A DNA stretch of 64,000 nt. It comes from an uncultured Myxococcales bacterium. Lineage in GTDB: Bacteria; Myxococcota_A; Polyangia; Fen-1088. Below, one piece after another: positions 17,528-59,211 of this stretch. Location of the stretch: contig CAZNCQ010000011.1 in assembly GCA_964571275.1 (NCBI GenBank), positions 1 through 64,000 of the forward strand, given 5' to 3'. Position numbers and translations under genes: made by a program. The notes below the pieces were generated by a model, which made no database searches, had not been told where the DNA came from, and worked only from the letters and a program-made list of their open reading frames with translations. The first letter of the stretch is position 1. Every line of letters starts with the position of its first letter.

Positions 17528-17547
17528 TGGGCGTGTAGCGCGGGTCG

Positions 17548-34022: not shown

Positions 34023-34047
34023 TACGGGTAGTCTTCGACTCGCTTCC

Positions 34048-38407: not shown

Positions 38408-39856
38408 TTGAAGGCCACCGCCGAAAGGCCTACGCTGCGCGCCATGCCACGCCGTTTGCCTGACGGCCGCGCGCCGACGTCTGCGAGCGCGCATGCGTTC
38501 GCCTCGTTGGTCGCGGTGGTTTTGTCGTCGTCTCTTCTGGGCTGTGGAGCCAGCCGCGGCGGCGACAACCCCGGCACCGGCGGCGATGGTCGCGGCGCGG
38601 GTGGCAGCAGCGTCACCGGCGGCGGCGGCGCCGCAACAGGCGGCAGCGGCGGCGCGACCGGCCCGGGCGGTGCCACCGGAACCGGCGCCGGCGGCAGCTC
38701 CACCGATGGCGGCGCACCGGGAACCGGCCTGCTCAAGAACGGAATGTGCTACCCGGTCTGCGCCTTCCCGGCGATCACCAACCCCACGGGCGATGGCTAC
38801 GGCTGGGAACAGCAGCGCACCTGCTTGGTCGCGACGTCGGCCGCAGCGGCGAACACGGTACCCTGTAACCCGACGCCGCTTCCCAACTTGCCGGCGCCCG
38901 GCAGCGGTGTCTTCGATGGGACGAACTGTCTCGCCTATTGCTCGAGCGCGCTCACCGACCCCCATCACACCGGCTACGGATTCGAGCACGGGCTCAACTG
39001 CGTCGTCACCGGGACCGCGGCGGCCTACGGCGGAGTCTCCTGCGCACCGGTGGCGCTGCCGGCCGGCAACGGCGTGATCATCACGGCTACGGGCGGCACG
39101 ATGATGTGCGCGCCGATCTGCATGAACCCCGCCGTATCGGATCCCGACGGCGACGGCTTCGGCTTCGAGAGCAACCAGACGTGCGTGGTCTCGACGTCGC
39201 TCACCGCGCTGCAGGGCACGCCGTGCAACGCGCCCAATCCACCACCGCCGCCCCCGCCGCCGCCCCCGCCACCTGGCACGGGCTGGAACGCGATGTACAC
39301 GGCGACGATGTTCGGCCAGCTCGACTGCGCGCCCCTCGGCGTCAGCGACACGACCAACCTGAACGGCAGCACCTGCGTCGCACGGGGCGCCGTGCGTCTC
39401 GCCGGCGCGAACACCACGTACTACGGCGCGGCCGGCGACCTGAGCACGCTGTGGAACGGCGCGCCCACGTGTACCTGCAACGGCGCGCAGAGCGCGCCCG
39501 ACCGTTGCGCGAGCCCGCCCGCTTGCTCCGGGCAGACAGACTGCGGTCTGTGCGCCGAGGTGGCGTGCAACGGGACCGGCACGTTTTCATTCAACGGCGA
39601 CGGCTTCACGCACGACGAGTTCTGCAAAGCCGGCCAGTCGGTCGTCGTGCAGCTGATTGACGCCTGCCCGCACAACCACCCGAACAACACCTACTGGTGC
39701 ACCGCCGCGCGCCCGCAGCACATCGATCTCAGCTGCACGGCGTTCAACGATCTGGTGAACGCCACCACCGCGCGCCCGCTGTCGTCGATCGGCAGCATCA
39801 ACGTCTACGCCCGCCAGGTCGACTGCAGCGTGGGACTCGGCGCGCACACGTTCTGA
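38408..39856 (+). CDS. secreted lipoprotein: three CBM10-like modules + poly-Pro linker + expansin/EG45-like (DPBB) domain
   Basis: Lipobox (LLGC; alternative start 38444); 3 repeats of C..C......GDGYGWE/GYGFE/GFGFE..(T/N)C(L/V)V (CBM10 cellulose-binding pattern); PPPPPPPPPPPPP linker; C-terminal CGLCAEVACNG...SVVVQLIDACP...HIDLSCTAFNDL resembling expansin/GH45 double-psi beta-barrel. Confidence 0.65.
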   Translation: MKATAERPTLRAMPRRLPDGRAPTSASAHAFASLVAVVLSSSLLGCGASRGGDNPGTGGDGRGAGGSSVTGGGGAATGGSGGATGPGGATGTGAGGSSTDGGAPGTGLLKNGMCYPVCAFPAITNPTGDGYGWEQQRTCLVATSAAAANTVPCNPTPLPNLPAPGSGVFDGTNCLAYCSSALTDPHHTGYGFEHGLNCVVTGTAAAYGGVSCAPVALPAGNGVIITATGGTMMCAPICMNPAVSDPDGDGFGFESNQTCVVSTSLTALQGTPCNAPNPPPPPPPPPPPPGTGWNAMYTATMFGQLDCAPLGVSDTTNLNGSTCVARGAVRLAGANTTYYGAAGDLSTLWNGAPTCTCNGAQSAPDRCASPPACSGQTDCGLCAEVACNGTGTFSFNGDGFTHDEFCKAGQSVVVQLIDACPHNHPNNTYWCTAARPQHIDLSCTAFNDLVNATTARPLSSIGSINVYARQVDCSVGLGAHTF

Positions 39857-39859
39857 GCG

Positions 39860-41632
39860 CTATTCCGTGTAGATCGTCGCCTTGGTCGTGCTGGTCATGA
39901 GTCCGTTCGTGCCCTTGATCAGCGTGTTCCCCCAGCTCGAGAGCTGCGTCCCCTCCCAGTCGACCGCCAGATCGAGATACGCCTGCGCCGTGCTGTTGCC
40001 TTTCCACGACCAGCCGAGGTAGCCGAGCTTCAGGCGCACACACTCGGACATGATGAACGCGGCGTCGATCGGCATCACCGGACTGCCGGCTTGCCAGCCG
40101 AACTCGCCGACGACCAGCGGCAGCTGCGCGGTCACCGCCGACTGCAACGTCGACGTGATCTTCGTGTGCCCGCCGGCGTTGGTCGCGTACTGCTCGTACA
40201 TGTGCACGCTGAACATCAGATTGTGCTGCGGATCGGCCGCCAGCAGCGCCGAGCCGTCGGTCATGATCGACGCTGCGTTCTGGCCGAAGCCGTTGGCGTC
40301 GATGATCAACGTGTGGTTGATCCCGCCGGAGCGCATGGCCGCAACCGCGGCCGTGTAGCCGCCGCGGAAATCGGTGCCGCTCCATTCGTTGGCGATGTTG
40401 ATCAGCAGGAACGCCTCGAAATCGAGCAGGATCTGTTTGATCGGCGCGCTGGTGTAGTAAGCGGCCATGTTCAGCAGGTCTTGATCGCTCGTACCGCCGG
40501 TGACGTCGTGCAATTCGACCAGCGGCACCATGCGCAGCTCCACGACGTGACGGATGATCCGGCGCAGCAACGCCGGCGTGCCCGGCGCGGCGGTGTCCCA
40601 GACGATGCGCACGACGTTCGCGCCGTCGGCCGCGATGTTGTCGAGCGCGTTGTACGCCAGGTACTGGTCGCCGACATCGAACCAAAAATCCGGGTTGTTG
40701 ATGCCGCGGGGAACGAAGTCGTTGCCGAACTTGTCGTAGAGCCGCCCGCCGGTGACGAAGAAACCGTTGCTCAGCATGCCGGCGGGCTTTTTCACCTGGC
40801 CCGGCGGCGGATTCGGGTTCAGCGTGATGGGCGGGCCAGTCGGCTCGGGCACGCCCACCTGGCAGGCGAGCCCTTTCATCGCCTCCGCCGTGCCGGCGAT
40901 GACGCACGAGGCGCCGAACTCGAAGCCAAAGCCGGTGCCGTTGGTATCGGTGGTCGTCACCGTGCAGATGCGCGTGCAGCTGTCGCCGAGCAGCCGCCCC
41001 GGCCCACCGGCGGTCGAACCACCGTCGGTGAGGGGCGCGCCCGTCGTACACGGCAGCGACGTCATCGCCACCGTCCCGCCCGGAATGATGCAGCTCGATT
41101 CGAACTCGTACCCGTAGCCGTCGCCCGGATTGGCGTCGAGGTCATCCTGAACCTCGGGCCCGCAGAGCGCCACGCACTGGTTGCTGACGATGACACCCGG
41201 CGATCCAGCGGGATGTCCGGCCGGCGGCAGCGCCATGCCGACGATGCAAGGGAGGTTGGTCGACGCCGTATAGGTGCCTTTGACCACGCACGACATGGCG
41301 TTCTCGTAGCCGTAGTCGCCGGAGGTCGCGCCGCTGGTCACGCACAGCGGGAAGCATTTGCCGCCGAGCGAGACGCCGGCAATCGAGGTCACCGGCGGCA
41401 TATTGGGGTTGCCGGCGTCGCCGCTCATGCCGGCCGCGCCGCCGTCGGGGAACGTCCCCGCACCGCCGCCGCCGTTGTTGCCGCCGGTGCCCGCCTGCGC
41501 GCCGCCGTCGCCACCGACGGTCGAGCCGCCGCCGACGCCGTCACTCGCGCCCATGACGCCGCCGCCGCAACCCGCGGCCGCGAGCACCACCGCCGCGACG
41601 AGAAATGAGGGGAATGGCTGTCCGGTCTTCAC
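39860..41632 (-). CDS. GH5-family endo-beta-1,4-mannanase-like glycoside hydrolase with three N-terminal CBM10-like modules
   Basis: GTG start 9 nt after GGAGG; lipobox (LAAAGCGG); Gly-rich linker; three CBM10-like units (GDYGYEN, GDGYGYEFESSC, GTGFGFEFGASC); catalytic domain with acid/base NEW (IANEWSG), nucleophile GEFG (LVVGEFGW) and LGWSWKGN. Confidence 0.7.
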   Translation of the reverse strand: MKTGQPFPSFLVAAVVLAAAGCGGGVMGASDGVGGGSTVGGDGGAQAGTGGNNGGGGAGTFPDGGAAGMSGDAGNPNMPPVTSIAGVSLGGKCFPLCVTSGATSGDYGYENAMSCVVKGTYTASTNLPCIVGMALPPAGHPAGSPGVIVSNQCVALCGPEVQDDLDANPGDGYGYEFESSCIIPGGTVAMTSLPCTTGAPLTDGGSTAGGPGRLLGDSCTRICTVTTTDTNGTGFGFEFGASCVIAGTAEAMKGLACQVGVPEPTGPPITLNPNPPPGQVKKPAGMLSNGFFVTGGRLYDKFGNDFVPRGINNPDFWFDVGDQYLAYNALDNIAADGANVVRIVWDTAAPGTPALLRRIIRHVVELRMVPLVELHDVTGGTSDQDLLNMAAYYTSAPIKQILLDFEAFLLINIANEWSGTDFRGGYTAAVAAMRSGGINHTLIIDANGFGQNAASIMTDGSALLAADPQHNLMFSVHMYEQYATNAGGHTKITSTLQSAVTAQLPLVVGEFGWQAGSPVMPIDAAFIMSECVRLKLGYLGWSWKGNSTAQAYLDLAVDWEGTQLSSWGNTLIKGTNGLMTSTTKATIYTE

Positions 41633-41900
41633 GGCAAAATACCTCCGAGCGACGATTCTCGGACCGAGCGCACACCGACGAAGCACCCGCCGAACGACGG
41701 CTCCCCGCTGACCGCAACGACGCGCCAACCTATCACGCGTCGCGCAGACCTGGCGAGTCGAGAACGGCTCGAAAATCGTGCGTGAACCAAACCGGGCACT
41801 TCGTGGCTCGGGGTCATTCCTGACTCGCCTGGCCGACTGGGAGCGCAGGCGCAACGATGATGTGGGCCTTGATGGGGGCGCTTTCTGGCATGATGCGCAC

Positions 41901-42605
41901 ATGGTCGCTTGGGGCGATGACGGCTCCGGAAAAGAGCCGACCAAGGGGACCGATCCGGTCGCCGAGCCGGGCGAGGGACAACCGCCAGCCCGCACGACAC
42001 GCGACTATGCCGTGCAACTCTTGCGGCGCTACGGCAACGGCCCCACGATTCGCCGCGTCTTCCTCGCCGGCGGCGTCGTCGGCGTTTCGCTGGTGATCGC
42101 GCTGGTGCTCGCGGGCGGGATGACCTTCAAGCGCGCGATCGACTACGTCGAATGCGAGCGCTTCGCGGTCCCGTCCGCGACCGTGCGCATCCAGAGCTCG
42201 CCCAACGGGCACGGCTGGGGGAACCCGGCGTTCCTCGGGTTCGCCAGCTTCGGCCCGCCCTATGACCTGCTGGTGATTGGAACGCTGCCCGACGGCGACG
42301 CCGCACAGGCGTTCGAGCTGCGTGACCTGGTCGTCGAGGCCGACGGCGCGGTCGACCTGACCGTGCCGCGGGTCGAGGCCCACGTCGAAGATCTGGTCGT
42401 GAACCAGGCGGGCATGAAGCGGCCCGCGCGCGGCTTTCTCTACCGGCAACGCGCGGTGACCGCTGCGACGCCGAACCGCCTGCGCGTCACCGGCACCGTG
42501 ACCGAGACCGCGCCGGTGGCGGGAAAGCCGCAGCACTTCACGCACGTCTTCGAGGCGCGCCGTACGAACCGCATCTCGCTCGGCCGCTGGTCGTGGGCGT
42601 TTTAG
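41901..42605 (+). CDS. hypothetical single-pass membrane protein
   Basis: ORF 41778..42605 with first plausible start at MVAWGDD (41901); one TM helix (VFLAGGVVGVSLVIALVLAGG); start uncertain. Confidence 0.3.
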   Translation: MVAWGDDGSGKEPTKGTDPVAEPGEGQPPARTTRDYAVQLLRRYGNGPTIRRVFLAGGVVGVSLVIALVLAGGMTFKRAIDYVECERFAVPSATVRIQSSPNGHGWGNPAFLGFASFGPPYDLLVIGTLPDGDAAQAFELRDLVVEADGAVDLTVPRVEAHVEDLVVNQAGMKRPARGFLYRQRAVTAATPNRLRVTGTVTETAPVAGKPQHFTHVFEARRTNRISLGRWSWAF

Positions 42606-47773: not shown

Positions 47774-49054
47774 TCACAGGCTGCGCCCTGCGACGCTGGG
47801 TGAGACGCGCGCGGCGCGCAGCGCCGGGATCAACGTCGCGACGATGGTGCCGACCCACAGCGTCGCCAGCGCCAGCAGCATCAGGGCGAAGTTGAAACGG
47901 ATCGCATGAAACACCGTTCGCATGACCGCGAACAGCGCGACCGTTGCGACGACGCCGATGATCGAGCCCATGACGGCGGCGATCGCGCTCTCGAGCAGGA
48001 AGTAGGTCACGATGTCGCCGCGTGTGGCGCCCAGCGCGCGCCGGATGCCGATCTGGCGCGTGCGTTGAGCCACCAGGAACGACGTGGCCGCGAGCGCGCC
48101 CAGAAGCGCGATCAGCGCCACCATGACCCCGAAGAAGCCCAGGAGGCGCAGCAACCCGAAGCCGATGCGGTGATGCGCGCCGGTCGTCGAGTCGAAGGCG
48201 CGCACGTCGGCGCGGCGTTGCGCGGACGCGCGCGCCAGCGCTTCGGCCGCGGCGGCGACGGCCGCATCACGTCGCCCCGGGCGGGCGCGCACGATCATGC
48301 GTGCCTCGTGATCGACGGGCGCGCCACCGATCAGGAACGCCGTGCAGCGCGGGTACGGCATCAGCGCCATGCGCATGGTGACGTCCTCGACCACGGCGCG
48401 CACGGGCACGTCGGCGATGCGGCTCGACGTCAGGTGCGCGCCCACCGCCGCGCGCGGGTCGCCGAATAGGCGCGCGGCCAGGCAGCGCGTGAGCACGGCC
48501 GCCGCCGGTCGCTCGCCGAGCGCGGGATCTCCGTCGGCATCGGCAATGACTGCACGCGCCGGCATCTCGCCCGCGAGAAACCGCAAACCGAGAGCACGCG
48601 CGACCTCACCGTCCGTGTAGGTCAGCCACGCGACCGCCTCCGGCGCGGCGGCGGACGAGCTTCTCGCCGCGGCCGGCGCAGCCCCGACCACCGAGAGCAA
48701 CGTCGGGTAGGTCCAGTGGTCCTCGAGGATGGTGCTGGTCACCCAGGCCGCGGCCTCGACGTCGGGCAGCGCGCGCACGATCCGCCGGTCGGCGCGCTCT
48801 CGCGCGCGCACCGCGCGTTCGGCGGCGGTCGGATCGAGCCCCGCCGGGCTCGGCGTGTACGTCGAGATCAGAACCAGGTTCGGCTCGTCGAGGCCACTCG
48901 GCTGCTGGCCCCCCTCGCCGTACCACGCGCCGGAGATCAGCAGCGATCCGATGGTCGTGACGCCGACCGCGACCTCGAGCACCATGAGCGCCCAGATGCC
49001 GGGACGGCGGCGAATCGTGCGGACCAGCGGTCCGACGTCGAGCGCCACTGTCAC
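47774..49054 (-). CDS. ABC transporter permease, MacB/FtsX-like (two-permease system, subunit 2)
   Basis: GTG start 6 nt after GGAGGG; N-terminal TM (LMVLEVAVGVTTIGSLL), large periplasmic domain, C-terminal FtsX 3-TM bundle (FLVAQRTRQIGIRRALGATRGDIVTYFLLE...). Confidence 0.75.
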   Translation of the reverse strand: MTVALDVGPLVRTIRRRPGIWALMVLEVAVGVTTIGSLLISGAWYGEGGQQPSGLDEPNLVLISTYTPSPAGLDPTAAERAVRARERADRRIVRALPDVEAAAWVTSTILEDHWTYPTLLSVVGAAPAAARSSSAAAPEAVAWLTYTDGEVARALGLRFLAGEMPARAVIADADGDPALGERPAAAVLTRCLAARLFGDPRAAVGAHLTSSRIADVPVRAVVEDVTMRMALMPYPRCTAFLIGGAPVDHEARMIVRARPGRRDAAVAAAAEALARASAQRRADVRAFDSTTGAHHRIGFGLLRLLGFFGVMVALIALLGALAATSFLVAQRTRQIGIRRALGATRGDIVTYFLLESAIAAVMGSIIGVVATVALFAVMRTVFHAIRFNFALMLLALATLWVGTIVATLIPALRAARVSPSVAGRSL

Positions 49055-50382
49055 GCCCTCCCCAGCGTCATCGTCGGCCGGCGCCGCGACGCGATCCAGC
49101 TCGGGTACAGCGCCGAGCCGATGCCCACCGCCATCGTCGCCGCGAAGATCAGCGCCACCGCCAGCCACGACATGCGCAGCGGGATGTCGTTGTCGCGCAC
49201 GAAGCGGTTGTAGAACGCGGCCTGCGGAAACGCGAGCAGCGTCCCCAGCGCGGCGGCGATGGCCGACAAGAGCGTCGCCTCGATGATCTGACGCCAGAAG
49301 AGCGCGCCGCGCGGCGCCCCCAGCGCGCGAAACACGCCCAGCTCGTCGCCGCGGACCAGCCCCTTGGCCAGCAGCAGGCGCGCGACGATCAGCCCCGAGC
49401 CGGCGAAGATGATCAGCGTCAGCAGCGTGAAGAAGCTGATCACCGACGGCGGGATCTTCACCATCTCGCGCCAGTCCGCGAGGTCGCGCAGCCGGTAGCG
49501 CAGCCCGCGCCGGCCGAGCTCGGCGGCCAGGTAGCGCTGGTAGGCGGCGCGCTGCTCGGGAGTCACCAGATCGACCCAGAAGGTGACGAAGACCGCGTCG
49601 GACTTCAACAGCTCCTCGTGGTGCGGTCCGACCGGCGTCAGGTAGTACGGCGTCTCCGGCCAGGCCTGCAGGCGCTGCTGGTCGGCAAAAGGCAGGTAGA
49701 CCGCGTCCTGGCCACCGCCGGCGGCAGCCGGGTCCCACTCGGCGTTGACCGGAGCGTCGTCGGCGAGCACGCCGCTCACGACGTACGGCCGGCCGTCGAT
49801 GCGCACGGTCTGGCCCGTGCTGTCATCGCCGCTGAATAGATCCTCGTTCAGCCGCCGGCCCAGCACCACCCGCGGGCGGTCGGCGACCTCATCCTCGCGC
49901 GACCACGGAGATCCCCAGCGCAAGCGCTGGGAGAACATCGTGAAGAACGCGGCGTCGACGAAGCGCGCGTTGCGCGCGCAGGCGAGCTCGGACGACACGA
50001 TGCCGGTCGAGATGGCGGCGCCGCCGTCGGAGGCGACCCAGAGCCGCGAGCGGAACGTCGCCATCTGGCGCGCGGGAATTCCGCTGGCCGCCAGCACCTG
50101 ATAGTTGGAGAAGCTGACGCGCGTGTGCGGCGCCAGCCGGCTGGGCGCGGCGGTCGAGCCGACGAACGCCAGGCGCAAGGTGCGATCGTCGACGCCGATC
50201 TCGACCTGGTGCAGCCCGGGCGAGAGCTCCGGTCGCGGGCCGTAGAGCCGCAGGTAGTGGATCAGCGCCGTGCTGAAGATGCACGCCGCGACCGCGAGGA
50301 CGATCACGATGGTGGCCGACAGTCCGGGGTCGCGCCGCAGGCTCCGCCAGGCGAGCCGCGTGTGGTAAGGGATCAGCCGCAC
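49051..50382 (-). CDS. ABC transporter permease, MacB/FtsX-like (subunit 1)
   Basis: Same architecture (LAWRSLRRDPGLSATIVIVLAVA ... LLAKGLVRGDELGVFRALGAPRGALFWRQIIE); 4-nt overlap with the downstream permease. Confidence 0.7.
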   Translation of the reverse strand: MRLIPYHTRLAWRSLRRDPGLSATIVIVLAVAACIFSTALIHYLRLYGPRPELSPGLHQVEIGVDDRTLRLAFVGSTAAPSRLAPHTRVSFSNYQVLAASGIPARQMATFRSRLWVASDGGAAISTGIVSSELACARNARFVDAAFFTMFSQRLRWGSPWSREDEVADRPRVVLGRRLNEDLFSGDDSTGQTVRIDGRPYVVSGVLADDAPVNAEWDPAAAGGGQDAVYLPFADQQRLQAWPETPYYLTPVGPHHEELLKSDAVFVTFWVDLVTPEQRAAYQRYLAAELGRRGLRYRLRDLADWREMVKIPPSVISFFTLLTLIIFAGSGLIVARLLLAKGLVRGDELGVFRALGAPRGALFWRQIIEATLLSAIAAALGTLLAFPQAAFYNRFVRDNDIPLRMSWLAVALIFAATMAVGIGSALYPSWIASRRRPTMTLGRA

Positions 50383-50391
50383 GCCGCCACC

Positions 50392-51141
<750 letters not shown>

Positions 51142-51152
51142 CGCGAGCGAAT

Positions 51153-51317
51153 TTACGATGACTGGACCGTCAACCGGCACGCATAGTTCGTGTGGAAGAG
51201 GCCGATCGCCCGGCCGAGCGCCAGCGCGACCCCACCCGCCGACAGCCCCGCGAGGACCCACATGATGGCGAGCCCGCTCGTCATCGCGAAAGCGGTCAGT
51301 CTCTGCGGAAGGCTCAT
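51153..51317 (-). CDS. possible small hydrophobic membrane peptide (54 aa) leading the ABC operon
   Basis: Not in the ORF track (<60 aa): GGAGAA 5 nt before ATG; MSLPQRLTAFAMTSGLAIMWVLAGLSAGGVALALGRAIGLF...; sits between the sigma54-like promoter and the ATPase gene; speculative. Confidence 0.25.
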   Translation of the reverse strand: MSLPQRLTAFAMTSGLAIMWVLAGLSAGGVALALGRAIGLFHTNYACRLTVQSS

Positions 51318-51373
51318 GGCGGTTCTCCGGGGCGATGGGTGGCGTAGGCGAACGACTTACGCCCCGCCTTCAG

Positions 51374-51389
51374 AGCACCGCGCGTGCCA
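51374..51389 (-). promoter_or_regulatory. candidate sigma54 (-24/-12) promoter: TGGCACG-CGCG-GTGCT
   Basis: Minus strand reads TGGCAC G CGCG GTGCT (perfect -24 element, -12 with conserved GC), about 45 nt upstream of the small ORF/ABC operon; an NtrC-type activator is encoded in the same gene string. Confidence 0.45.
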
Positions 51390-51497
51390 AGGCCCAAACG
51401 CGCGCGCGGCGCGGACTTAGAGCGTCCGCGCCGCGCCATCAACCTCGGACGTTCCAGCTGTCCGCGGACAGGTGTCCGCGGCGCTGGCGTCCCTGGA

Positions 51498-53813
51498 CTA
51501 CGGGTAGCTCGGCGAGCAGCTGATGCAGCTGATGCCGGTGGCGTTCGTGACCGTCCAGACCGTGCTCTGCGAGTTGCTCACGAAGGTCAGTCCGGTGAAC
51601 ACGCCGGTGTTGAACTGATCGATCGAAGCGCCCTTGGTCTTGGTGAGAGTGACGTTGGTCAGGTTGATGTGGTTGTGCTGCATGTTCGACAGGCCGTGGA
51701 TCCAGAGACCGTAGCCCTTGGCCGTCGACACGGTGATGTTGCTCAGGTTGATGTTCTGGAACACGCCGGGGATGCTGGCGGCGGCGTAGCCGCTGCCGGC
51801 CGGGTAGCTGCTGTCGAACAGGATGGCGTCGGTGGCGATGCTGGTCATGGTGATATCGCGCGCGGTCACCAGCGTGGCGCCGCCGCCGCGATCCGAGCCG
51901 GTCTTGAAGCGCAGGCCGATATCGGTGCCGTTGAAGGTCGAATCCTCGACGAGCACGTTCTTGATCCAGCCCGCGGTGAAGCTGCCGAAGACCACGCCGC
52001 CGTGGCCGCGGTTGGTGAGGACGTTGAAGACGCGGATGTTGTTGTCGGGCTTGTTCTCGGTGACGCCGGGGGCGCTGGTGCCGGCATTGAGGTTGACGCA
52101 GTCGTCGCCGGTGTCGAACGTCGAGTTGAAGATGTACGCGGTGTCGGTGGTGGCCAGGTCGATGCCGTCGGCGTTGTGGATGCCGTAGGTGCTGACGTTG
52201 ATGCCGTTGACGGTGACGTTGGTGCTGTAGCTGATGAAGATCGTGTGCTCCGACGGATGCACGATGTTGAGGCCGCCGCCCAGGAACAGGCCGTTCACGC
52301 CCTTGGCGGTGATCAAGTCGCCGCGCGCGGTGTCGCCCTTGGCGTTGGTCTGCGCCGTCCCGAGCGTGGTCAAGCTGGCGCCGCTGCTGTAGGTGCCGCC
52401 GTCAATGGTTCCGGTGCCGGTGATGCGCACGTTGCTCATCGAGCCGTACGTCGTCGTGTACGCGTTCACGAGACCCATGTAGTTCGCGTTGGTGTAGTAC
52501 GGGAAGCGCCAGCTCGTGTACGGGTAGTCCGCCAGCAAGTCGCTGCCCTTGAGCGTGCCGTCGATCTGCAGGGTCATGTTGCTCTTGAGCATGATGGCGC
52601 CCGACACGAACGTGCCGGCCGGGACCAGGACGGTGCCGCCCGCGGGGCAGGCGTTGATGGCGGCTTGAATCGCCAGCGCGTTGGTGGCGCCGCTGGCCGA
52701 CGTCGACGCCGAGTACGGCGACGAGGTGATGTTGATGACCGTCGGCGCCGCCGGGGTGGTCACCGCCAGCGCGTTGCTGTCGGCCGAGAGCGCGCCGCTG
52801 CCCGAGACCGCCTTGACGGTGAACGACGTCGTGGTGCTCGGCGCGAGGCCGGTCACCGTGTAGAACAGCTTCGTGGTGTTGCCGAGCAGCGCGCCGCTCT
52901 TGTAGATGTTGTAGCTGGCGACGTTGGAGTAGGTCGACGGCTTCGACCAGATCAGCGTGGTGCCGGTGCTGGTGGTCGAGACCGGCGGGACCATGAGCGT
53001 CTGCGGCGCGCTCGGTGTGCCGCCGCCGACAGCGCCGCCCGTGCCGGTCGCGCCGCCCGTGCTGGTCGTGCCGCCGGTGCCGGTCGCGCCGCCGGTGCCG
53101 GTCGTGCCGCCCGCGCCTGCGCTGCCGCCCGCGCCCGACGAGCCGCCGCTGCCGCCGGCCGCGCCGGTCGCGACGGTGACGTAGTCGAACTCGGCGTTGG
53201 CGCCGTAGGTGCCGAACGCCAGCTTGCCGGCCGCGGTGACCTGGCTGCTGCTGGTGTCCGAGTAGGTCTTCTTGAGCACGCCGTTCAGGTACATGTTCAG
53301 AGTCACCGGGTTGGATCCGGTGATCGTGAGCCGAACCGTGTTCCAGGTGCCGGTGGTCAGGCTGGCGCCGACGCTGGTCAGCGTGGTGAGACTGCCGTTG
53401 TAGCGGCGATCGATCGCGATCGAGCCGCCACCGCGCACGACCGCCAGGTACGCATTGGCGCCGGTGCCGGACTGGATGCCCGAGTGGCGGCCGTAGACGC
53501 CGGCGAGGTAGGTCGAGCTCGACGAGCTGAACGCGTTGACCTTGATCTTGATCTCGATGTCCTGGTCGGCGCTGGACATCGCCGGTCCCATGACGTCGTT
53601 GTACGACGCGGTGGTCACGTTGCGCTCGAGCGCCTTGACGCTGCCGTCGGTGACGACTACCCACTCCGACGCGGTGGGCGCCGACCAGCCGTTGGCGTTG
53701 CCGTCCTCGAAATCATCCGAGAACGTGGCTGCCGCGTGGCCGCTGATGGAAAGCAATCCCACCGCCGCACCCGCCAACAACCCCGACGTCACCCGAGCTT
53801 GCGTCAATCGCAT
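51498..53813 (-). CDS. secreted multidomain polygalacturonase: LamG-like/DUF1080-like module + Gly-rich linker + FN3-like + GH28 catalytic domain
   Basis: Signal peptide; N-terminal FSDDFEDGNANGW... module paralogous to the downstream gene; GH28 motifs NADGIDL, GDDCVNLN, RGHGGVVFGS, GLRFKT (NTD / G.DD / G.HG / R.K pattern). Confidence 0.75.
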   Translation of the reverse strand: MRLTQARVTSGLLAGAAVGLLSISGHAAATFSDDFEDGNANGWSAPTASEWVVVTDGSVKALERNVTTASYNDVMGPAMSSADQDIEIKIKVNAFSSSSSTYLAGVYGRHSGIQSGTGANAYLAVVRGGGSIAIDRRYNGSLTTLTSVGASLTTGTWNTVRLTITGSNPVTLNMYLNGVLKKTYSDTSSSQVTAAGKLAFGTYGANAEFDYVTVATGAAGGSGGSSGAGGSAGAGGTTGTGGATGTGGTTSTGGATGTGGAVGGGTPSAPQTLMVPPVSTTSTGTTLIWSKPSTYSNVASYNIYKSGALLGNTTKLFYTVTGLAPSTTTSFTVKAVSGSGALSADSNALAVTTPAAPTVINITSSPYSASTSASGATNALAIQAAINACPAGGTVLVPAGTFVSGAIMLKSNMTLQIDGTLKGSDLLADYPYTSWRFPYYTNANYMGLVNAYTTTYGSMSNVRITGTGTIDGGTYSSGASLTTLGTAQTNAKGDTARGDLITAKGVNGLFLGGGLNIVHPSEHTIFISYSTNVTVNGINVSTYGIHNADGIDLATTDTAYIFNSTFDTGDDCVNLNAGTSAPGVTENKPDNNIRVFNVLTNRGHGGVVFGSFTAGWIKNVLVEDSTFNGTDIGLRFKTGSDRGGGATLVTARDITMTSIATDAILFDSSYPAGSGYAAASIPGVFQNINLSNITVSTAKGYGLWIHGLSNMQHNHINLTNVTLTKTKGASIDQFNTGVFTGLTFVSNSQSTVWTVTNATGISCISCSPSYP

Positions 53814-53868
53814 CGTTGATCCCTTTCGAGCAAAATTCGTTCCGTTGAGAGAACCGGTTCACGGCGCG

Positions 53869-54546
53869 CTAGTAGGTCATCCAGCTCTCGGAGCCGATGA
53901 CGTCGCCGTTGGTGACCACAAAGCTGTCGAACGAAGCGTCGGTCCCGAACGTACCGACACCGACCTGGCCGTTGGCGATCCAGGAGTTGGCGTCGACGGC
54001 GGTGACGCGCAGAACGCCGTTCAGGTACGCGTTCAGGCGCACCGGGTTGGCGCCAATGACCTCGAGGCGAATGCGGTAAAACGAACCGGCGATCATTCCG
54101 GCGGCCGGAAAGCTCGACAACGTCGTATTGACGCCGTTCGTGCGCTTGTTGATGCCGATCGAGCCGTCACCACGCACGGTCACGAAATAGCCGTTGGTGG
54201 TCGAGGGCGAATTGCCCGAATAGCGCGCGTAAACCGCGGCCAGGTAGGTTGGATCGCCGGCGACGAGCCAGCGGTTCACCTTCACGGTCGCCTCGACCGA
54301 GGTGTCGGTCCACGCGTACTGGCCGATCAGGCTGTCGTTCCAGGTCGCGGTCGTCGCGGTCCGGTGGTAGGTGAACTCGACGCCGTCGCTGTCGACCGAC
54401 CACTCCGGGGCGTTGGTCGGCGTCCAGCCGGTCGAATTGCCGTCGCTGAAGTCGTCGGAGAACAGCGTCGTCGTCGTCGCGCGCGCATCGACGCTGGCGA
54501 CCGCGATCGAGAAGCCGACGAGCAGAGCCAAAGCCTTCGAAGTCAT
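53869..54546 (-). CDS. secreted LamG-like/DUF1080-like protein, standalone paralog of the GH28 N-terminal module
   Basis: Signal peptide (MTSKALALLVGFSIAVASVDA); LFSDDFSDGNSTGWTPTNAPEWSV...AAVYARYSG...YFVTVRGDGSIGINKR... aligns with residues ~30-220 of the upstream gene. Confidence 0.6.
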   Translation of the reverse strand: MTSKALALLVGFSIAVASVDARATTTTLFSDDFSDGNSTGWTPTNAPEWSVDSDGVEFTYHRTATTATWNDSLIGQYAWTDTSVEATVKVNRWLVAGDPTYLAAVYARYSGNSPSTTNGYFVTVRGDGSIGINKRTNGVNTTLSSFPAAGMIAGSFYRIRLEVIGANPVRLNAYLNGVLRVTAVDANSWIANGQVGVGTFGTDASFDSFVVTNGDVIGSESWMTY

Positions 54547-54836
54547 CTGTGGGCGCGAGGCGCGGTCGTACATCCGTGGTCTCCTTTGTTGGCGAACCGC
54601 TTCCGCGGCCCGACATTGCTTCCAACTGAAGCAGTAAGTGGGCCAACGTTTCCTAACGCCGGAGATGGTGGTTTATTGCGGGTCTAGCGCGCTCATTACC
54701 GCTGCCCTGTTGTGATCACTGCAACTGGGACGAACACGCTGTTGTCGTGCCGGCGACACCCATGCAGCGCGTAGGCGTGGCGCGACAATCGGGTCCGGCG
54801 TGGGTCGTGAGGCGCGAAGGCGCGCGATTGGCGCGA

Positions 54837-55586
54837 CTACTTCTTCGGCTTCTTCGCCTTGGCCGCGCCCGTCAACCCGGTATGGCCAGGGGCGTCAGCG
54901 CTCTTGCCAGGCGAGCTCGCACCGGCGCCGCCGGCCCGATCGCCAGACTCGAGCGCGCGCGAGAGCGCAGAATCGAGCGAGGCGCCGCGCGACCGCATGT
55001 TGCGGCCCAGCGCCTCGAGCGCGTCGGCGCGGCTCACCGTCTGCTCGGTGCGAATCGCCTCGAGACCGGCAACGACACGACCCAGCGACGGCGCGTCGCG
55101 ATCGGCGATCTCCTGCACCAGCGACGCCGATGGGCGGCTCGGATAGCCGCGAACGGTCAAATCGGTCACGACCTCGATGGCGCGCGCGACCACCGCGTCG
55201 CCTTCGTGCGACGCCGCGAGCGGCGCGATCGCCTCGGGCTCCACGCCCGCCATGCGCGCCTCGGTGACCACGCGCACCAGCGCCAGTGATGGCGACGGCG
55301 ACGGCGACGGCGACGCCGCGCGGTGGGCGCGCAGCAGCGCCGCCGACGCGCTCAGGTTCTGCGCCAATCGCTGCGCCACGTCGCGGATGACCTCGGGCGC
55401 GACGCCCTTGGCCAGGCCCTCGCGCACCTTGCTCACGACCATGTCGGCAGGCAGCCCCTCGTGCGAGACCCTGGACAGGGTCCTTTCCAGGTCAGCCCGT
55501 ACCGGCCCCAGGCGCGGATCGGCGGGCAGCGCCGGCTCCGCCGCCGCCGTGGCCGCGAGCAACAGGGAAAAGAGAGCGATGCCCAT
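54837..55586 (-). CDS. hypothetical secreted protein with (SP)n tract and Lys-rich C-terminus
   Basis: Start MGIALFSLLLAATAAA (signal peptide); helical Ala/Arg-rich; SPSPSPSPS encoded by (GGCGAC)4; ends KAKKPKK; extracted from a longer spurious ORF. Confidence 0.45.
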   Translation of the reverse strand: MGIALFSLLLAATAAAEPALPADPRLGPVRADLERTLSRVSHEGLPADMVVSKVREGLAKGVAPEVIRDVAQRLAQNLSASAALLRAHRAASPSPSPSPSLALVRVVTEARMAGVEPEAIAPLAASHEGDAVVARAIEVVTDLTVRGYPSRPSASLVQEIADRDAPSLGRVVAGLEAIRTEQTVSRADALEALGRNMRSRGASLDSALSRALESGDRAGGAGASSPGKSADAPGHTGLTGAAKAKKPKK

Positions 55587-55624
55587 GTATCGACGATGCC
55601 CCTTCCTCGAGCTACGACGCAACG

Positions 55625-56887
55625 TCATCGGCGATACACCGAATCGGCACCGACGGCCAACACGCCATCCTCGCCTCCGAAGCCGTCGGGCAGATAGCGC
55701 GGGGCATCGACCGGCCGCACCGACCGCCCGTCGACCAGGAAGTGGTAGCGGTGGTCGCCGGCGCCGACGTCGACCCAACCTTCCCAGAGATCGGGATCGC
55801 CCGTCGCGCGCAGCCGCTGCCGGGACTGATCGGACGCCCAGTCGTTCCAGGAGCCGATGACCTCGACCGTCGCCGCGCCACGCGCCCGTAAGCGAAAACG
55901 CACGCGGTCCTTCTCGATGAGGGGCGCCTCTCCGCCGTCGCCGACGGGCGCGGCTGTGACGCGCACCGGCGATGCGGCCAGGTGGCCCACCAGCGCCAGC
56001 GTCAGGACCTGGCGCGAATAGTCCGATGACGCCGAGACCGCGCGGTTGAGCAGCGCCTCGTAACGGCCGACCACATCGATGGCGGCGGCGGCGCGCACCG
56101 AGACGGCCAGCGTGCCGCCAAGCTGCCGGTCGGTCTCCACGCCTTCGGTGCTCTGCGTCCCGGCCCACACCGCCGCGCTCGTGGTGACCGTGGCGACCGG
56201 AATGTACGAGACGCTGGAGCCGCCGCGGAAGCGCCGCAACGACCCGGCGGTCTGCGTGGGATCGAAGAGGTCGGAGCGCAGCGACAGGTACTCGCCGTCC
56301 AGGCCGACGTCGACGCTCGCCGTCGGCGACCAGATCGCCGCCAGCCGCGCCGATTGGCCGAGATCCCCGCGCACCTGCAGCGCCGTCGCGTCGACGAACT
56401 GGCGCCGGTCGATCTCGTAGCTGGCCGCCGCGCGCAACCTGTCGCGCGCGCGCAACGTCAGCTGCGCGCGCCCGCCCCACGACCAGAAGCTGTCCGTGGT
56501 GAACTGCCCGGCGTCGAAACGCCCGCCCGTGGCCGCCACGCGCAGGGCGAAGGGCCCGATCTCGGCAACGATGAGCGATAGGTCGGCGTCCTGCAGATAG
56601 AGCACCCCTGCGCCAAAGGTTTGAATCACGTCGGCGCCGTAGCGCAGCTCGAAGCGGTAGTCGCTACCGATGACCGCGCCGGCCAGCATGGGATGCGCGC
56701 GAACGAACGCTCCCCGATACGCGTGAAAGTTCGGGCTGTCGGGGCTGGCGGCTATTTGCAGGAACAGGTTCGTGTCGTAGCCTGCCGCAGCTTCCATCTC
56801 GGCGCTGGCCGACCCATGAACCGGCGGGGCCGCCGAGGCGACGCTGCACACCGCGAGGAGTGAGAGAGCGACGCACGCACGAAGCAC
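55625..56887 (-). CDS. secreted protein: beta-strand-rich (barrel-like) N-terminal region + C-terminal CBM48/AMPK-beta glycogen-binding-like domain
   Basis: Signal peptide; alternating hydrophobic beta-strand pattern; C-terminus VRFRLRARGAATVEVIGSWNDWASDQ...HRYHFLVDGRSVRPVDAP...DGFGGEDGVL homologous to the C-terminus of the upstream anti-sigma factor. Confidence 0.5.
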   Translation of the reverse strand: MLRACVALSLLAVCSVASAAPPVHGSASAEMEAAAGYDTNLFLQIAASPDSPNFHAYRGAFVRAHPMLAGAVIGSDYRFELRYGADVIQTFGAGVLYLQDADLSLIVAEIGPFALRVAATGGRFDAGQFTTDSFWSWGGRAQLTLRARDRLRAAASYEIDRRQFVDATALQVRGDLGQSARLAAIWSPTASVDVGLDGEYLSLRSDLFDPTQTAGSLRRFRGGSSVSYIPVATVTTSAAVWAGTQSTEGVETDRQLGGTLAVSVRAAAAIDVVGRYEALLNRAVSASSDYSRQVLTLALVGHLAASPVRVTAAPVGDGGEAPLIEKDRVRFRLRARGAATVEVIGSWNDWASDQSRQRLRATGDPDLWEGWVDVGAGDHRYHFLVDGRSVRPVDAPRYLPDGFGGEDGVLAVGADSVYRR

Positions 56888-56916
56888 CGCGTGTCGAGAA
56901 TATCATCAGATGCTCG

Positions 56917-57504
56917 TTACAACCGCAGCAGGGCGTTCTGGCGGCCGAACCCGTCGTCGCGGCGCTCGCCGGCGGCCGGGTCGGTGATCCACTGGCCGTC
57001 GACGACGAACATGTACTCGTAGTCGCCCGGCGGCAGCTCGAGCGTGCCGACGAAGACGCCGTCGGCGGTCGCCGGCTCGAGCACCGTCTCGTCGGCGCGC
57101 CACTGGTTGAACGAGCCGGCCAGCGCGACCCGCCGGGCGCCCTTGGCCAGCAACTGAAAGCGCACGCGCACCGGCGCGACGCCCGCGACGCCCGCGGGCG
57201 TGGCCGGCGCAATCACGACGGCAACCGGCTGGGCGGCGCGCGGCGGCGTCGCGACCCGCATCAACAAGACGGCCGCGAGCGCCAAGCCCAGCGTCGCGGC
57301 GCTCGCACCCAGCGGTGTCACGCGCAGGCGGATCACGAACGGCCGCTGCAGCCACCGCCAGACACTGGGAGGCCGCGGCTCCTCGATGCGCCGCATGACA
57401 CCGGCGACCAGCGACGGCGGCGGTGTGACGTCCCGCAGCTTGGCGAGATCCGGATCCGGTCCCGGCTCGGCGAGATCGCGCGCGTCGCCCGGCGTTGCCT
57501 TCAT
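56917..57504 (-). CDS. anti-sigma factor (single TM) with periplasmic CBM48/AMPK-beta-GBD-like domain
   Basis: ATGA overlap with the ECF sigma gene; cytoplasmic N-terminus, one TM (LGASAATLGLALAAVLLM), C-terminal VRVRFQLLAKGARRVALAGSFNQWRADE...GDYEYMFVVDGQWITDPAAGERRDDGFGRQNALL. Confidence 0.55.
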   Translation of the reverse strand: MKATPGDARDLAEPGPDPDLAKLRDVTPPPSLVAGVMRRIEEPRPPSVWRWLQRPFVIRLRVTPLGASAATLGLALAAVLLMRVATPPRAAQPVAVVIAPATPAGVAGVAPVRVRFQLLAKGARRVALAGSFNQWRADETVLEPATADGVFVGTLELPPGDYEYMFVVDGQWITDPAAGERRDDGFGRQNALLRL

Positions 57505-58168
57505 GGCTGGCTGTCCTGGTCGAGCAGCTTCTGCATCATCGCGCGGCCCCGCACGACGCGAATCTTGAGCGTGGTGATCGGCAGGCGCAAGATCGCGTGG
57601 ATCTCGTCGTAGGGAAGCTCCTCGACGTCCTTCAGGATCAAGACCTCGCGATACTTCACGGGAACGCGCAGCAGTGCGCGTTCGAGGCGCCGCACCTGCT
57701 CGCCGCGCAGCGCATGGGCTTCCGGCGTCGCGGGCTCGTGCGCGAACGACGCTTCGCCGCCGCCGACGTCGCGGTCCAGCGGCTCTTCGCTCCAGCGCTT
57801 CGACTTGAGCACGTCCTTTGCCCGATTGACCGCGATGCGGACCAGCCAGGTCGAGAACGCGTGCGGGCGCCCGTCGCCGCGAAATCGATCGAGCGCGTCG
57901 AACGCGTCGACGAAGGCCTGTTGCGCGACGTCCTCGGCTTCGGCGCGGCCGCCCAGCATGCGCAGCGCGACCGAGAAGATCAGCCGCTGATACCGCTGCA
58001 CCAGCGGGCGAAAGGCGTCGGCCTCGCCCGCGAGGCAGCGGGCGATGAGCGTTTGTTCCTCGCGATCCGTGGCGCTGGCCGGCGCCGGCGCCGCCGCGGG
58101 CGCAGCCGCCGTCAGTGTGATCGCGCCCGACACGCCGGAGGTACGAGCGTTGGGGTCGTCAGGATGCA
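57501..58168 (-). CDS. ECF (group IV) sigma-70 factor
   Basis: Region 2 (QTLIARCLAGEADAFRPLVQRYQRLIFSVALRMLGGRAEAEDVAQQAFVDAF) and region 4 (YREVLILKDVEELPYDEIHAILRLPITTLKIRVVRGRAMM); 5' start uncertain (GTG near 58168 in an AT-richer divergent promoter region). Confidence 0.8.
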
Positions 58169-58299
58169 CCTTTTTTAGAGTATTCCGATATGGGCGATCC
58201 GGGAATGCCGTCGCGGCTTTTCTGTATCGAACGCGAGCGCGAGTCGTTGTCCGTGCGACCGACGCGCGGGCACACGCGCGTCGAGTCGAAGGAGCATCC

Positions 58300-59211
58300 A
58301 TGAAGGTCCAGAACCCGTTTTGGTATCTCGCCGTCCTGTCCGTGCTCGCGTTCGAGCTCTCTCCCAGCGGTTGCAACGATTCCAGCGCTCCCGGGAACGG
58401 CGGCAGCGGCATGGGCGGCAATGGTGGGACATCGACCGACGCCGGCGCCTCGGGCAACGGAGGCGATGGCCATGCCGACGGCGGCACCGACGGCCCGACG
58501 TTGGGCGTTGACGCGAGCGGCAAGCTCACGATTGGACATACCCAGTGCAGCGACGGCATCGACAACGACGGCGATGGCTTGATTGATTACGCCGATCCGG
58601 AATGCGTTGGCCCCAACGACAACGATGAGAGCTCGTTTGCGACCGGCATCCCCGGCGACAATGTCGACGCCTGCAAGCAAGACTGTTTCTTCGACGGCAA
58701 TTCGGGCATGGGGGACGACCATTGTTTGTGGCAGCTCAAATGCGATCCGCTTTCGCAAAGCGCGAGCTGCCCCTACGATCCGGCCTACGCCGCGCAACAC
58801 GCCACGGAGTGCTCGGTCTCGAGCTCGCAATCGCAAGCTTGCATCGACAGCTGCCGCAAGCTGGTGCCGAACGGCTGCGATTGCTTCGGCTGCTGTCAGA
58901 TTCCGGGCGCGCCGACCGCGATCCGACTGGCGGCGACGTGCACGGCGGCCAAGTTCAACGATCCCACAGCCTGTCCGCCGTGCACGCAGGTCACCCAGTG
59001 CGCGAACACCTGCGAGCACTGCGAGATCTGCGTCGGCAAACCGACGCTGCCGCCCGATTGCGGCCCGGTCGTCGACGCCGGCGGCACGACGCCGCCCCCG
59101 CCGGTCTGCCCAGGGACGTCGCAGGCCTGTGGCCCGGGCGGCATCGATCCCGCGGCTTGCCCCACGGGGACCGGCTGCATCACCGGCTGCTGCCTCAATC
59201 TGGTCCCGTAG
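58300..59211 (+). CDS. cysteine-rich lipoprotein (myxobacterial Cys-rich repeat-like)
   Basis: GAAGGAG RBS; lipobox LSPSGC; Gly/Asn-rich linker; CSDGIDNDGDGLIDYADPEC-type Cys-rich repeats; 36 Cys in the mature part. Confidence 0.6.
   Translation: MKVQNPFWYLAVLSVLAFELSPSGCNDSSAPGNGGSGMGGNGGTSTDAGASGNGGDGHADGGTDGPTLGVDASGKLTIGHTQCSDGIDNDGDGLIDYADPECVGPNDNDESSFATGIPGDNVDACKQDCFFDGNSGMGDDHCLWQLKCDPLSQSASCPYDPAYAAQHATECSVSSSQSQACIDSCRKLVPNGCDCFGCCQIPGAPTAIRLAATCTAAKFNDPTACPPCTQVTQCANTCEHCEICVGKPTLPPDCGPVVDAGGTTPPPPVCPGTSQACGPGGIDPAACPTGTGCITGCCLNLVP

Follow-up and report, generated by a model that had tools for sequence, protein, structure and literature searches.

The 64,000-nucleotide stretch of DNA analysed here (the window), contig CAZNCQ010000011.1 of an uncultured Myxococcales bacterium with a G+C content of ~69%, encodes an extracytoplasmic function (ECF) sigma factor followed by a single-pass membrane protein whose periplasmic C-terminus is confirmed, by sequence profiles and by its predicted fold, as a genuine CBM48/AMPK-beta-type carbohydrate-binding module (CBM). 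The genes for these two proteins lie on the minus strand, as do two further genes of the locus, called p3 and p4. Whether the locus constitutes a self-contained, autoregulated ECF module of the SigW/RsiW-RpoE/RseA type, in which the CBM48 module is a functional periplasmic sensor of an alpha-glucan-like ligand, is in our judgement evenly balanced. An earlier note on this DNA, made from the sequence alone, had described the sigma factor, an anti-sigma factor and p3 as a circuit controlling neighbouring genes of plant polysaccharide degradation; p4 is added here as the third conserved member of the module. The genes of the locus and the evidence for each are as follows.

57501..58133, minus strand: ECF sigma factor of 210 amino acids, SigW/AlgU/RpoE-like (Pfam, NCBIfam and PDB matches, start-codon alignment, independent gene call)
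56917..57504, minus strand: putative anti-sigma factor of 195 amino acids (ATGA overlap, linkage to sigma, RsiW-domain match of relatives, AlphaFold model)
56920..57177, minus strand: periplasmic CBM48/AMPK-beta-type module, residues ~110-195 of the putative anti-sigma factor (Pfam, family profile, Foldseek, site conservation)
55625..56887, minus strand: p3, 420 amino acids, with signal peptide, predicted barrel, disordered linker and degenerate CBM48-like C-terminus (AlphaFold, Foldseek, Pfam)
54837..55586, minus strand: p4, secreted helical-repeat protein of 249 amino acids with the motif GLPxxxhxxKhxEGLAKGV (homologs, N-termini of relatives, gene call)

The CBM48/AMPK-beta Module

The C-terminus of the membrane protein had been read as a CBM48/AMPK-beta fold, with an alignment to the corresponding profiles proposed as the check, and this alignment bears the reading out. 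Both Pfam models match above their cut-offs, AMPK1_CBM with E=3.9e-13 (49.8 bits against 26.8) and CBM_48 with E=1.4e-7 (32.1 bits against 22.4), and a profile of 35 homologs finds the AMPK beta CBM in the PDB at ~7e-15, with residue mapping. The fold agrees: the AlphaFold model of the domain has a predicted local distance difference test score (pLDDT) of 97-98, and its best PDB matches by Foldseek are AMPK beta CBMs (1z0m, 4yef, 6c9f), superimposed with a root-mean-square deviation of 1.3-1.8 A and target-normalised template-modelling (TM) scores of 0.8-0.89. The NCBI label for such proteins is only "glycogen-binding domain-containing protein."

The ligand site of this fold is described in eukaryotic proteins. 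In AMPK beta1, cyclodextrin stacks on Trp100 and Trp133 and forms hydrogen bonds with Asn150 and Lys126, while Leu146 pierces the ring; mutation of both Trp residues abolishes binding (PMC9788615). The equivalent Trp pair is needed for starch binding by plant PTST (PMC4339375). The corresponding positions were followed in related loci, collected by scanning one genome per GTDB species with a pattern derived from the anti-sigma alignment; this yielded 209 loci, of which 80 were kept (numbered L001 onwards where individual loci are named). Alignment of the 80 anti-sigma modules to AMPK beta2 gave the following occupancy, with the residue of the window protein in brackets.

Trp100 position: Trp in 80/80 modules (W135)
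Trp133 position: Trp in 77/80 modules, Phe in 2 more (W172)
Asn150 position: Asn in 79/80 modules (N190)
Leu146 position: Phe in 78/80 modules (F186)
Gly147 position: Gly in 80/80 modules (G187)
Lys126 position: Met in 72/80 modules, never Lys (M165)

Four of the five AMPK beta1 contact positions (Trp100, Lys126, Trp133, Leu146, Asn150) are thus kept in the sensor, Lys126 being the exception. The near-invariance of the sugar-stacking site argues for carbohydrate binding, and glycan sensing by the module is plausible as far as sequence conservation can tell. Recognised CBM48 ligands are alpha-glucans (glycogen, starch, cyclodextrin), and we know of no case in which pectin or xylan is counted among them; by this family precedent the ligand class would be alpha-1,4/1,6-glucans rather than pectin or xylan.

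CBM48-like domains of this kind are also common in a different setting. A CBM48-subfamily profile matched 9790 representative proteins at E<=1e-10, many of them multi-repeat proteins with 3-19 tandem copies (proteins P0170-P0316), and the matches include a large set of ~480-amino-acid proteins with four copies each of "glycogen-binding" repeats. This search, an exhaustive one with the anti-sigma alignment, was dominated by such multi-repeat CBM48-like proteins and gave no clean family count.

The ECF Sigma Factor and Its Linkage to the Membrane Protein

The assignment of the first gene to the ECF sigma factors stands. Pfam finds Sigma70_r2 (E=7.7e-19) and Sigma70_r4_2 (E=1.6e-9) and no other sigma region, the NCBIfam model TIGR02937 is matched with 98.4 bits (cut-off 42.9), and the top PDB sequence matches are SigW (8e-27), AlgU (2e-26) and RpoE (5e-23). 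With sigma2 and sigma4 as its only regions and a length of 210 amino acids, the protein has the make-up of ECF (group 4) sigma-70 factors, which contain only these two regions in ~200 residues. Neither a SigI-type sigma factor nor an RsgI N-terminal domain was found by Pfam or NCBIfam, and the sigma factor fits the ECF models.

Its start codon, placed near 58168 in the earlier note, had to be moved. The gene lies within a longer open reading frame (57501-58565), and when the region upstream of sigma is aligned between the window and 11 related loci, all start codons, whether GTG or ATG, share a single column at 58133; an independent gene call, taken from an ENA metagenome contig with the same sequence, likewise gives a protein of 210 amino acids. 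The GTG at 58169-58167 was rejected as a start, since it is part of the conserved -35 element GTGCATCC of the promoter described below, and the start is therefore set at GTG 58133.

The translational coupling of the pair was correctly noticed: the TGA of the sigma gene overlaps the ATG of the membrane-protein gene at 57504-57501 (sequence CCATGAAGG), and an NTGA overlap occurs at the same junction in 62/79 related loci. In every related locus (80/80), the gene just upstream of the one for the CBM48 membrane protein encodes an ECF sigma homolog. The closest relatives of the locus are metagenome-assembled genomes (MAGs) labelled Polyangia or Myxococcales, and the whole set covers Polyangia/Myxococcota, Nitrospirota, Gemmatimonadota, Vicinamibacterales (Acidobacteriota) and Eisenbacteria together with a few others. 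The trio of sigma factor, CBM48 protein and helical protein co-occurs in Polyangia, Nitrospirota, Gemmatimonadota, Acidobacteriota and Eisenbacteria. None of the PADLOC defence models matched the five proteins of the locus.

Anti-Sigma Function of the Membrane Protein

The single transmembrane helix attributed to the membrane protein is recovered in the AlphaFold model, where it spans residues 64-84 (57253-57315) and is followed by a Pro/Ala linker. A gene adjoining that of the sigma factor, NTGA coupling and a single-pass membrane topology are all traits of class I anti-sigma factors. In family members from other phyla, the profile of the N-terminus matches the RsiW anti-sigma domain with E=3.8e-6 over 64 positions and RseA weakly (E=0.37), and zf-HC2 is approached only at E=0.02-0.2. 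Anti-sigma function of the family of CBM48 membrane proteins is thus well supported.

The window protein itself calls for more caution. The N-terminus of its Polyangia subfamily is ~25-30 residues shorter than that of relatives from other phyla, helices 1-3 of the anti-sigma domain are missing, and what is left of a class I anti-sigma domain in the short cytoplasmic segment is the motif of its last helix (residues 27-46, PPPSLVAGVMRRIEEP). That the protein inhibits sigma cannot be taken for granted, because only these ~20 anti-sigma residues remain and the HxxxCxxC zinc motif is absent from the window protein and its relatives in the alignments; we infer anti-sigma function for the window protein, including sigma binding by its truncated N-terminus. 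A quite unlikely alternative is that the membrane protein of the Polyangia subfamily has ceased to be an anti-sigma factor and has become a co-expressed glycan-binding envelope protein, the sigma factor being regulated otherwise. The loss of helices 1-3 and of the zinc ligands speaks for it, as does a Pfam scan of the window membrane protein that found no anti-sigma domain, but the coupling and gene order are exactly those of relatives with a full-length domain, and the cytoplasmic segment that remains is strongly conserved in the subfamily (LAxLRxVxPPPSLVAGVMRRIxEPxPPSLWRWL). Short class II anti-sigma domains, such as that of CnrY, moreover work with few helices.

Promoters and the Local Regulon

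Three candidate promoters of one type lie at the locus, one of them in front of a gene that is divergent to sigma. Scores are those of a position weight matrix (PWM) that was trained only on the related loci and with which the window was then scored.

58142..58168, minus strand: sigma-operon promoter, TGCATCC-N15-TCGTA (kept in register in relatives; PWM 26.8 bits, best in the window)
55613..55638, minus strand: internal promoter for p4, TGTATCG-N14-TCGTA, overlapping the p3 stop codon (PWM 22.3 bits, second in the window)
58223..58248, plus strand: divergent promoter, TGTATCG-N14-TCGTT (PWM 20.7 bits, third in the window)
58300..59211, plus strand: divergent Cys-rich acidic-repeat lipoprotein of 303 amino acids (homologs divergent to sigma; the promoter at 58223-58248 precedes its ATG at 58300)

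All three sites conform to TG(C/T)ATC(C/G)-N14/15-TCGT(A/T), and they are the three best-scoring sites of the 64-kb window, the next one reaching 14.4 bits. The pattern TGCATCC-N15-TCGTA has its sole exact match in the window in front of sigma, and the permissive pattern TG[CT]AT[CG][CG]-N13-16-[TC]CGT[AT] has four matches, three of them at the locus, where ~0.2 would be expected by an estimate from information content. Scans for sigma-70 promoters and for terminators were uninformative in this GC-rich DNA.

The promoter layout recurs in most of the Polyangia loci L001-L011, though the spacer sequences differ. The sigma promoter is found in register upstream of sigma in L001-L004, L006-L009, L011 and L061; the motif at the p3/p4 junction recurs in L001-L004, L006, L007, L009 and L011, being intergenic in L003 and L004; and the divergent motif lies upstream of the divergent gene in L001, L002, L004, L008, L009, L011 and L062, reading TGCATCC-N14-TCGTA in L008, L009 and L011. 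The conserved sequence upstream of sigma has the form of a bipartite ECF promoter with a CGT-containing -10 element, which points to autoregulation. This -10 element, TCGTA, ends 8 nt before the GTG start of sigma (58131-58142 region), so the sigma transcript probably has no leader, or hardly any. Homologs of the lipoprotein, which has a partial NCBIfam match, below cut-off, to an acidic double-disulfide repeat, are divergent to sigma in L001-L004, L006 and L007, and the lipoprotein is a probable member of the regulon.

Other phyla use variants of the same motif. Eisenbacteria have sites before sigma and before the p4-like gene, and in two loci a divergent site, in the flavour TGTAAC(C/T)-N-CGTC; a TGTAACC...CGTC version stands at the place of the p4 junction in the Eisenbacteria loci L030, L031, L070 and L073. 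Nitrospirota have TGTAACC-N-TCGTC upstream of sigma. Extra TGTAACC-N-CGTC copies were observed further upstream in Nitrospirota (L018:5599-7238, L045:4753-4778, L054:4757-4782), where they precede a gene for a 295-amino-acid protein without Pfam match and then the gene of a small CBM48 lipoprotein; this suggests a larger local regulon in Nitrospirota.

The p3 Barrel and a Second CBM48-Like Domain

The third gene, described in the earlier note as encoding a beta-strand-rich secreted protein, does encode a beta-rich protein; AlphaFold and Foldseek point, more specifically, to an outer-membrane barrel. The model contains 14 long antiparallel strands in residues 24-305 (pLDDT 82), and the best Foldseek match is OmpG (4e-9, TM 0.63 by target), followed by CymA, chitoporin and FadL. 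The likeness to 14-stranded porins is at the level of the fold only (~10% identity), and no Pfam family matched the barrel; p3 is accordingly described here as a predicted 14-stranded outer-membrane barrel.

That the sensor domain is duplicated in p3 is borne out as well. The C-terminal CBM48-like domain (residues 323-412, 55652-55921; fold pLDDT 70-90) lies at the Pfam threshold, with 27.3 bits against 26.8 for AMPK1_CBM and 22.3 against 22.4 for CBM_48, and the duplication is considered real because the C-terminal domains of the anti-sigma factor and of p3 match each other in phmmer searches of related loci (1e-8 to 1e-12). The p3 copy keeps the equivalent of Trp100, has Ser and Asp at the equivalents of Trp133 and Asn150, and the Asp is invariant in p3 homologs; judging from these replacements, the copy may have changed its function. 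In a barrel with an even number of strands both termini lie on the periplasmic side, so the C-terminal domain of the modelled p3 is presumably periplasmic and would share the compartment of the sensor.

A second CBM48-like domain is present in 43/80 loci, in different guises. In Polyangia and Eisenbacteria it forms the C-terminus of a ~400-500-amino-acid protein whose gene follows that of the anti-sigma factor; Nitrospirota have it as a small lipoprotein encoded upstream of sigma, and Vicinamibacterales as a small protein encoded downstream. Both Trp residues and the Asn are present in all of the small second copies (23/23). Genes for unfused outer-membrane barrels (Phenol_MetA_deg family; OMP_b-brl) were also observed next to the sigma/anti-sigma pair in an acidobacterial locus (L021:6303-7205) and a Nitrospirota locus (L018:10541-11140), echoing the barrel-CBM48 fusion of Polyangia.

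The Helical-Repeat Protein p4

In 63 loci (cluster 3 of the clustered nearby open reading frames) the gene next downstream of the anti-sigma factor or of p3, in the same orientation, encodes a p4 homolog, and homologs outside that cluster occur in at least 10 further Polyangia-type loci (L001-L011), which places p4 beside the pair in most loci. The motif GLPxxPhxxKxxEGxAKGV is common to the cluster family and to p4 of the window. No match to p4 was found in Pfam or NCBIfam, a PDB profile search returned only a designed helical-repeat protein, and the profile and PDB searches revealed no similarity to RseB/MucB.

The N-termini of relatives, a Shine-Dalgarno-like sequence (GAGGAAGG) upstream, the internal promoter and the independent gene call agree on ATG 55586 as the start of p4. 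An alternative ATG at 55628, which forms part of an ATGA overlap, was rejected because it lies in the spacer of the internal promoter; it is probably not used as the p4 start. The protein may be an RseB-like modulator of the module or its main output.

A Proposed Mechanism and Its Main Rival

Taken together, these elements would make up a signalling chain across the envelope. The co-translated single-pass protein would hold the sigma factor at the inner membrane; binding of an alpha-glucan-like oligo- or polysaccharide to the periplasmic CBM48 module would alter the stability of the anti-sigma factor; and release would follow by regulated proteolysis, by analogy with the precedent of the family, possibly modulated by p4. 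The freed sigma factor would then fire the three TG(C/T)ATC(C/G)-N14/15-TCGT(A/T) promoters, so that its output would comprise its own operon (sigma, anti-sigma and p3), p4 and the divergent Cys-rich lipoprotein. The barrel of p3 might let in the ligand or present it, or might connect sensor and outer membrane; p3-type barrels with a second CBM48-like domain, as seen in Polyangia and Eisenbacteria, are probably on the input side, either as a route of entry or as a partner that spans the envelope. The gene identities, the predicted fold of the domain, the conserved binding site, the linkage across phyla and the promoter motifs with their positions are direct results of the analysis; the ligand and the regulon, release by proteolysis and the functions given to p3 and p4 are what we infer. 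We put forward more tentatively, as possible but rather doubtful, the wider proposal of a widespread trans-envelope module of soil and sediment bacteria (Polyangia, Nitrospirota, Gemmatimonadota, Acidobacteriota, Eisenbacteria), in which the CBM48 sensor monitors an endogenous or imported periplasmic alpha-glucan together with the new p4 family and, in some phyla, with barrels or lipoproteins bearing a second CBM48 copy.

Several observations weigh against a functional alpha-glucan sensor on an anti-sigma factor. The window protein aligns to the anti-sigma profile of its family over residues 27-46 only and lacks the zinc motif; Met takes the place of Lys126 in the sensor; and the module of p3 has lost the second stacking Trp and the Asn. 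The locus contains no protease gene, and no genes of alpha-glucan metabolism were seen near the loci when neighbours were sampled in four loci of other phyla, where aldehyde dehydrogenase, ArgJ, TPR, DsbH-like, aminotransferase and outer-membrane barrel genes were found instead, which are of housekeeping or envelope kind and unrelated. The cis regulon is without enzymes and fits envelope biology better than nutrient use, and the relatives are uncultured MAGs throughout.

Some of these points favour what we regard as the main rival, although it is unlikely in itself, namely that the CBM48 fold senses protein contacts or the integrity of the envelope rather than free glycan, being capped by p4 as RseA is by RseB and/or paired with the paralogous domain of the barrel or lipoprotein, and that envelope stress breaks this contact and triggers proteolysis. 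The sigma factor is RpoE/AlgU/SigW-like, the order of sigma, anti-sigma and periplasmic partner mirrors rpoE-rseA-rseB, and no other partner is as widely conserved as p4; more than half of the loci encode a second CBM48-like domain, carried by a barrel or lipoprotein, L018 and L021 have further outer-membrane barrel genes in the neighbourhood, and the cis regulon consists of envelope proteins outside any context of glucan metabolism. Such a sensor would, however, hardly explain why the two Trp residues and the Asn scarcely vary in the sensor, and not at all in the small copies, unless sugar is bound, and p4 is unlike RseB/MucB.

Neighbouring Carbohydrate-Active Enzyme Genes

The genes that had given rise to the idea of a plant polysaccharide circuit, which encode glycoside hydrolases (GH) and other carbohydrate-active enzymes (CAZymes), are placed as follows.

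53869-54573, minus strand: lectin-like gene between p4 and GH28, 264 nt downstream of p4
51498-53813, minus strand (the strand of p4): GH28 (Pfam)
39860-42004, minus strand: GH5, ~13 kb away
33904-35715: pectate lyase, ~20 kb away

The locus was said to sit beside all three enzyme genes; this holds for GH28, with one gene between, but not for pectate lyase and GH5, which lie 13-20 kb away and are separated from the locus by a MacB-type ABC transporter and a sigma-54 two-component system. The proposal that the CBM48 anti-sigma factor senses plant polysaccharide and that sigma switches on GH28, pectate lyase and GH5 is very improbable on the present evidence. It can draw on the lectin and GH28 genes, which follow p4 on the same strand, with no canonical terminator in the 264 nt between, and are kept in L001 and L002, and on the precedent that CBM-bearing anti-sigma factors control cellulosome genes in Clostridium thermocellum (PMC10328401, PMC4711584). 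Yet a search for an ECF promoter upstream of the CAZyme genes, which the earlier note had proposed, found none: the best upstream PWM scores are 0.6 bits for the lectin gene, 0.2 for GH28, 8.2 for GH5 and 9.8 for pectate lyase, which is background, compared with 20.7-26.8 bits at the locus. A motif at 34162-34188 (TGCATCC-N15-ATCGT, 14.4 bits) was rejected as a pectate-lyase promoter, since it has a background score and lies on the wrong strand (minus); this match (34160-34190), at the start of the pectate lyase gene on the opposite strand, is most likely due to chance.

Nor is the gene order conserved. Apart from the window, lectin and GH28 genes come after p4 in L001 and L002 alone, whose anti-sigma factors are 75-80% identical to that of the window and in which the whole neighbourhood is collinear, whereas in L003 (64% identical) p4 is followed directly by homologs of the sigma-54 regulator and kinase of the window. 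The ~6.8-kb block of lectin, GH28 and MacB-FtsX ABC genes (47774-54573) present in the window, L001 and L002 is thus absent from L003 (L003:4521-5154) and from every more distant locus, and since p4 abuts the regulator in L003, the block represents an insertion or deletion difference between close lineages. No homologs of the CAZyme genes of the window were found in the other loci of the set, and none of these 77 loci showed a CAZyme neighbour. The recognised ligands of CBM48, being alpha-glucans, also do not fit pectin or xylan as the signal. Control of the pectin and hemicellulose genes by the ECF circuit is therefore not upheld, and the unit does not include GH28, pectate lyase or GH5.

The spacer of 264 nt between p4 and the lectin gene contains a GC hairpin without a U tract, and the fold of this intergenic region is not significant (z = -0.9). 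An AT-richer stretch and a good Shine-Dalgarno sequence precede the lectin ATG, which suggests that the lectin gene has its own promoter; transcription may also run on from p4 into the lectin gene and GH28.

Comparison with Known Systems

The nearest relatives in mechanism are SigW-RsiW of Bacillus subtilis and the RpoE-RseA-RseB/AlgU-MucA-MucB systems of Proteobacteria, which the present locus resembles in the matches of its sigma factor, the RsiW-domain match of the wider family, the coupled single-pass anti-sigma factor, the autoregulated promoter and the downstream periplasmic partner. The SigW promoter reads TGAAAC-N16-CGTA, and the sigma promoter found here, TGCATCC-N15-TCGTA, is SigW-like in form. 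Differently from RsiW and RseA, the periplasmic domain is a CBM48 module and not the C-terminal domain of either protein, the zinc motif is missing, and in the subfamily of the window the anti-sigma domain is cut to its last helix; p4 is helical and unrelated to RseB/MucB, and a barrel with a second CBM48-like domain is added.

In Clostridium thermocellum, the SigI-RsgI and Sig24C-Rsi24C systems couple glycans to alternative sigma factors by an outward-facing CBM on the membrane anti-sigma factor (PMC10328401, PMC4711584, PMC6582324). The logic of SigI-RsgI, with the C-terminal CBM of the anti-sigma factor as input, is shared, whereas the sigma factor here is an ECF protein of the SigW/RpoE type and the partner lacks an RsgI N-terminal or autoproteolytic periplasmic domain. 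The clostridial systems carry CBM3, CBM42, PA14 or GH modules in place of CBM48, and the hosts considered here are didermic bacteria of other phyla, in which the regulon seen is without glycoside hydrolases.

Glycan sensing in the polysaccharide utilisation loci (PULs) of Bacteroidota relies on ECF240 (formerly ECF10) sigma factors, a FecR-like anti-sigma factor and a SusC-like outer-membrane transducer (PMC7826278, PMC3243724). These systems have in common with the present one an ECF sigma factor, an inner-membrane anti-sigma factor, an outer-membrane barrel and a glycan link. Pfam and NCBIfam found no FecR, Plug or TonB_dep_Rec match in the proteins of the locus, however, and instead of a TonB-dependent transducer with an N-terminal signalling domain there is a predicted 14-strand barrel with a C-terminal CBM48-like domain, without linkage to SusD or CAZymes.

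The CBM48 modules of AMPK beta, SNF1, SEX4 and PTST, finally, share the fold and the Trp-Trp-Asn glucan-binding constellation. They belong to cytosolic or plastidial eukaryotic regulators or are appendages of enzymes, whereas the module described here is periplasmic, sits on a bacterial anti-sigma factor and has Met for Lys126.

A literature search found no published anti-sigma factor with a CBM48/AMPK-beta module (AMPK1_CBM, PF16561, glycogen-binding), and the main text of the ECF reclassification paper makes no mention of a CBM48 domain. The principle of a CBM-bearing anti-sigma factor is already established from clostridial RsgI, and what appears to be new here is its CBM48 version. To our knowledge, the input signal is not established for most groups of ECF sigma/anti-sigma pairs, a major signalling device of bacteria, and glycan-sensing anti-sigma factors have been documented mainly in cellulolytic clostridia. 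The sensor described here has a recognisable ligand site of the starch/glycogen type, and its signal is therefore directly testable. A periplasmic CBM48 version in diderms would broaden the glycan-sensing principle and raises the question of which alpha-glucan occurs in their periplasm. The group is found in at least five phyla, poorly studied though abundant in soils and sediments; if the proposal is true, ECF signalling would gain a new class of input, and the periplasm of these bacteria might hold a glucan pool that has gone unrecognised. The analysis also corrects a mis-annotation, in that proximity to CAZyme genes is no sign of co-regulation here.

Other Features of the Window

The GH5 gene, of the cellulase family, is arranged tail to tail with a gene for a DPBB protein (expansin/lytic transglycosylase-like; 38744-39856, plus strand), and both proteins have a weak CBM_10 match. 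Further away, a type VI spike and toxin pair (15332-23261, plus strand) consists of VgrG (Phage_GPD and Gp5 domains) followed by a 1422-amino-acid RHS-repeat protein (DUF6531, RHS core). A multihaem cytochrome (MtrC/MtrF-like, with cytochrome c7/c554 motifs) fused to TPR repeats is encoded at 23655-25595 on the minus strand.

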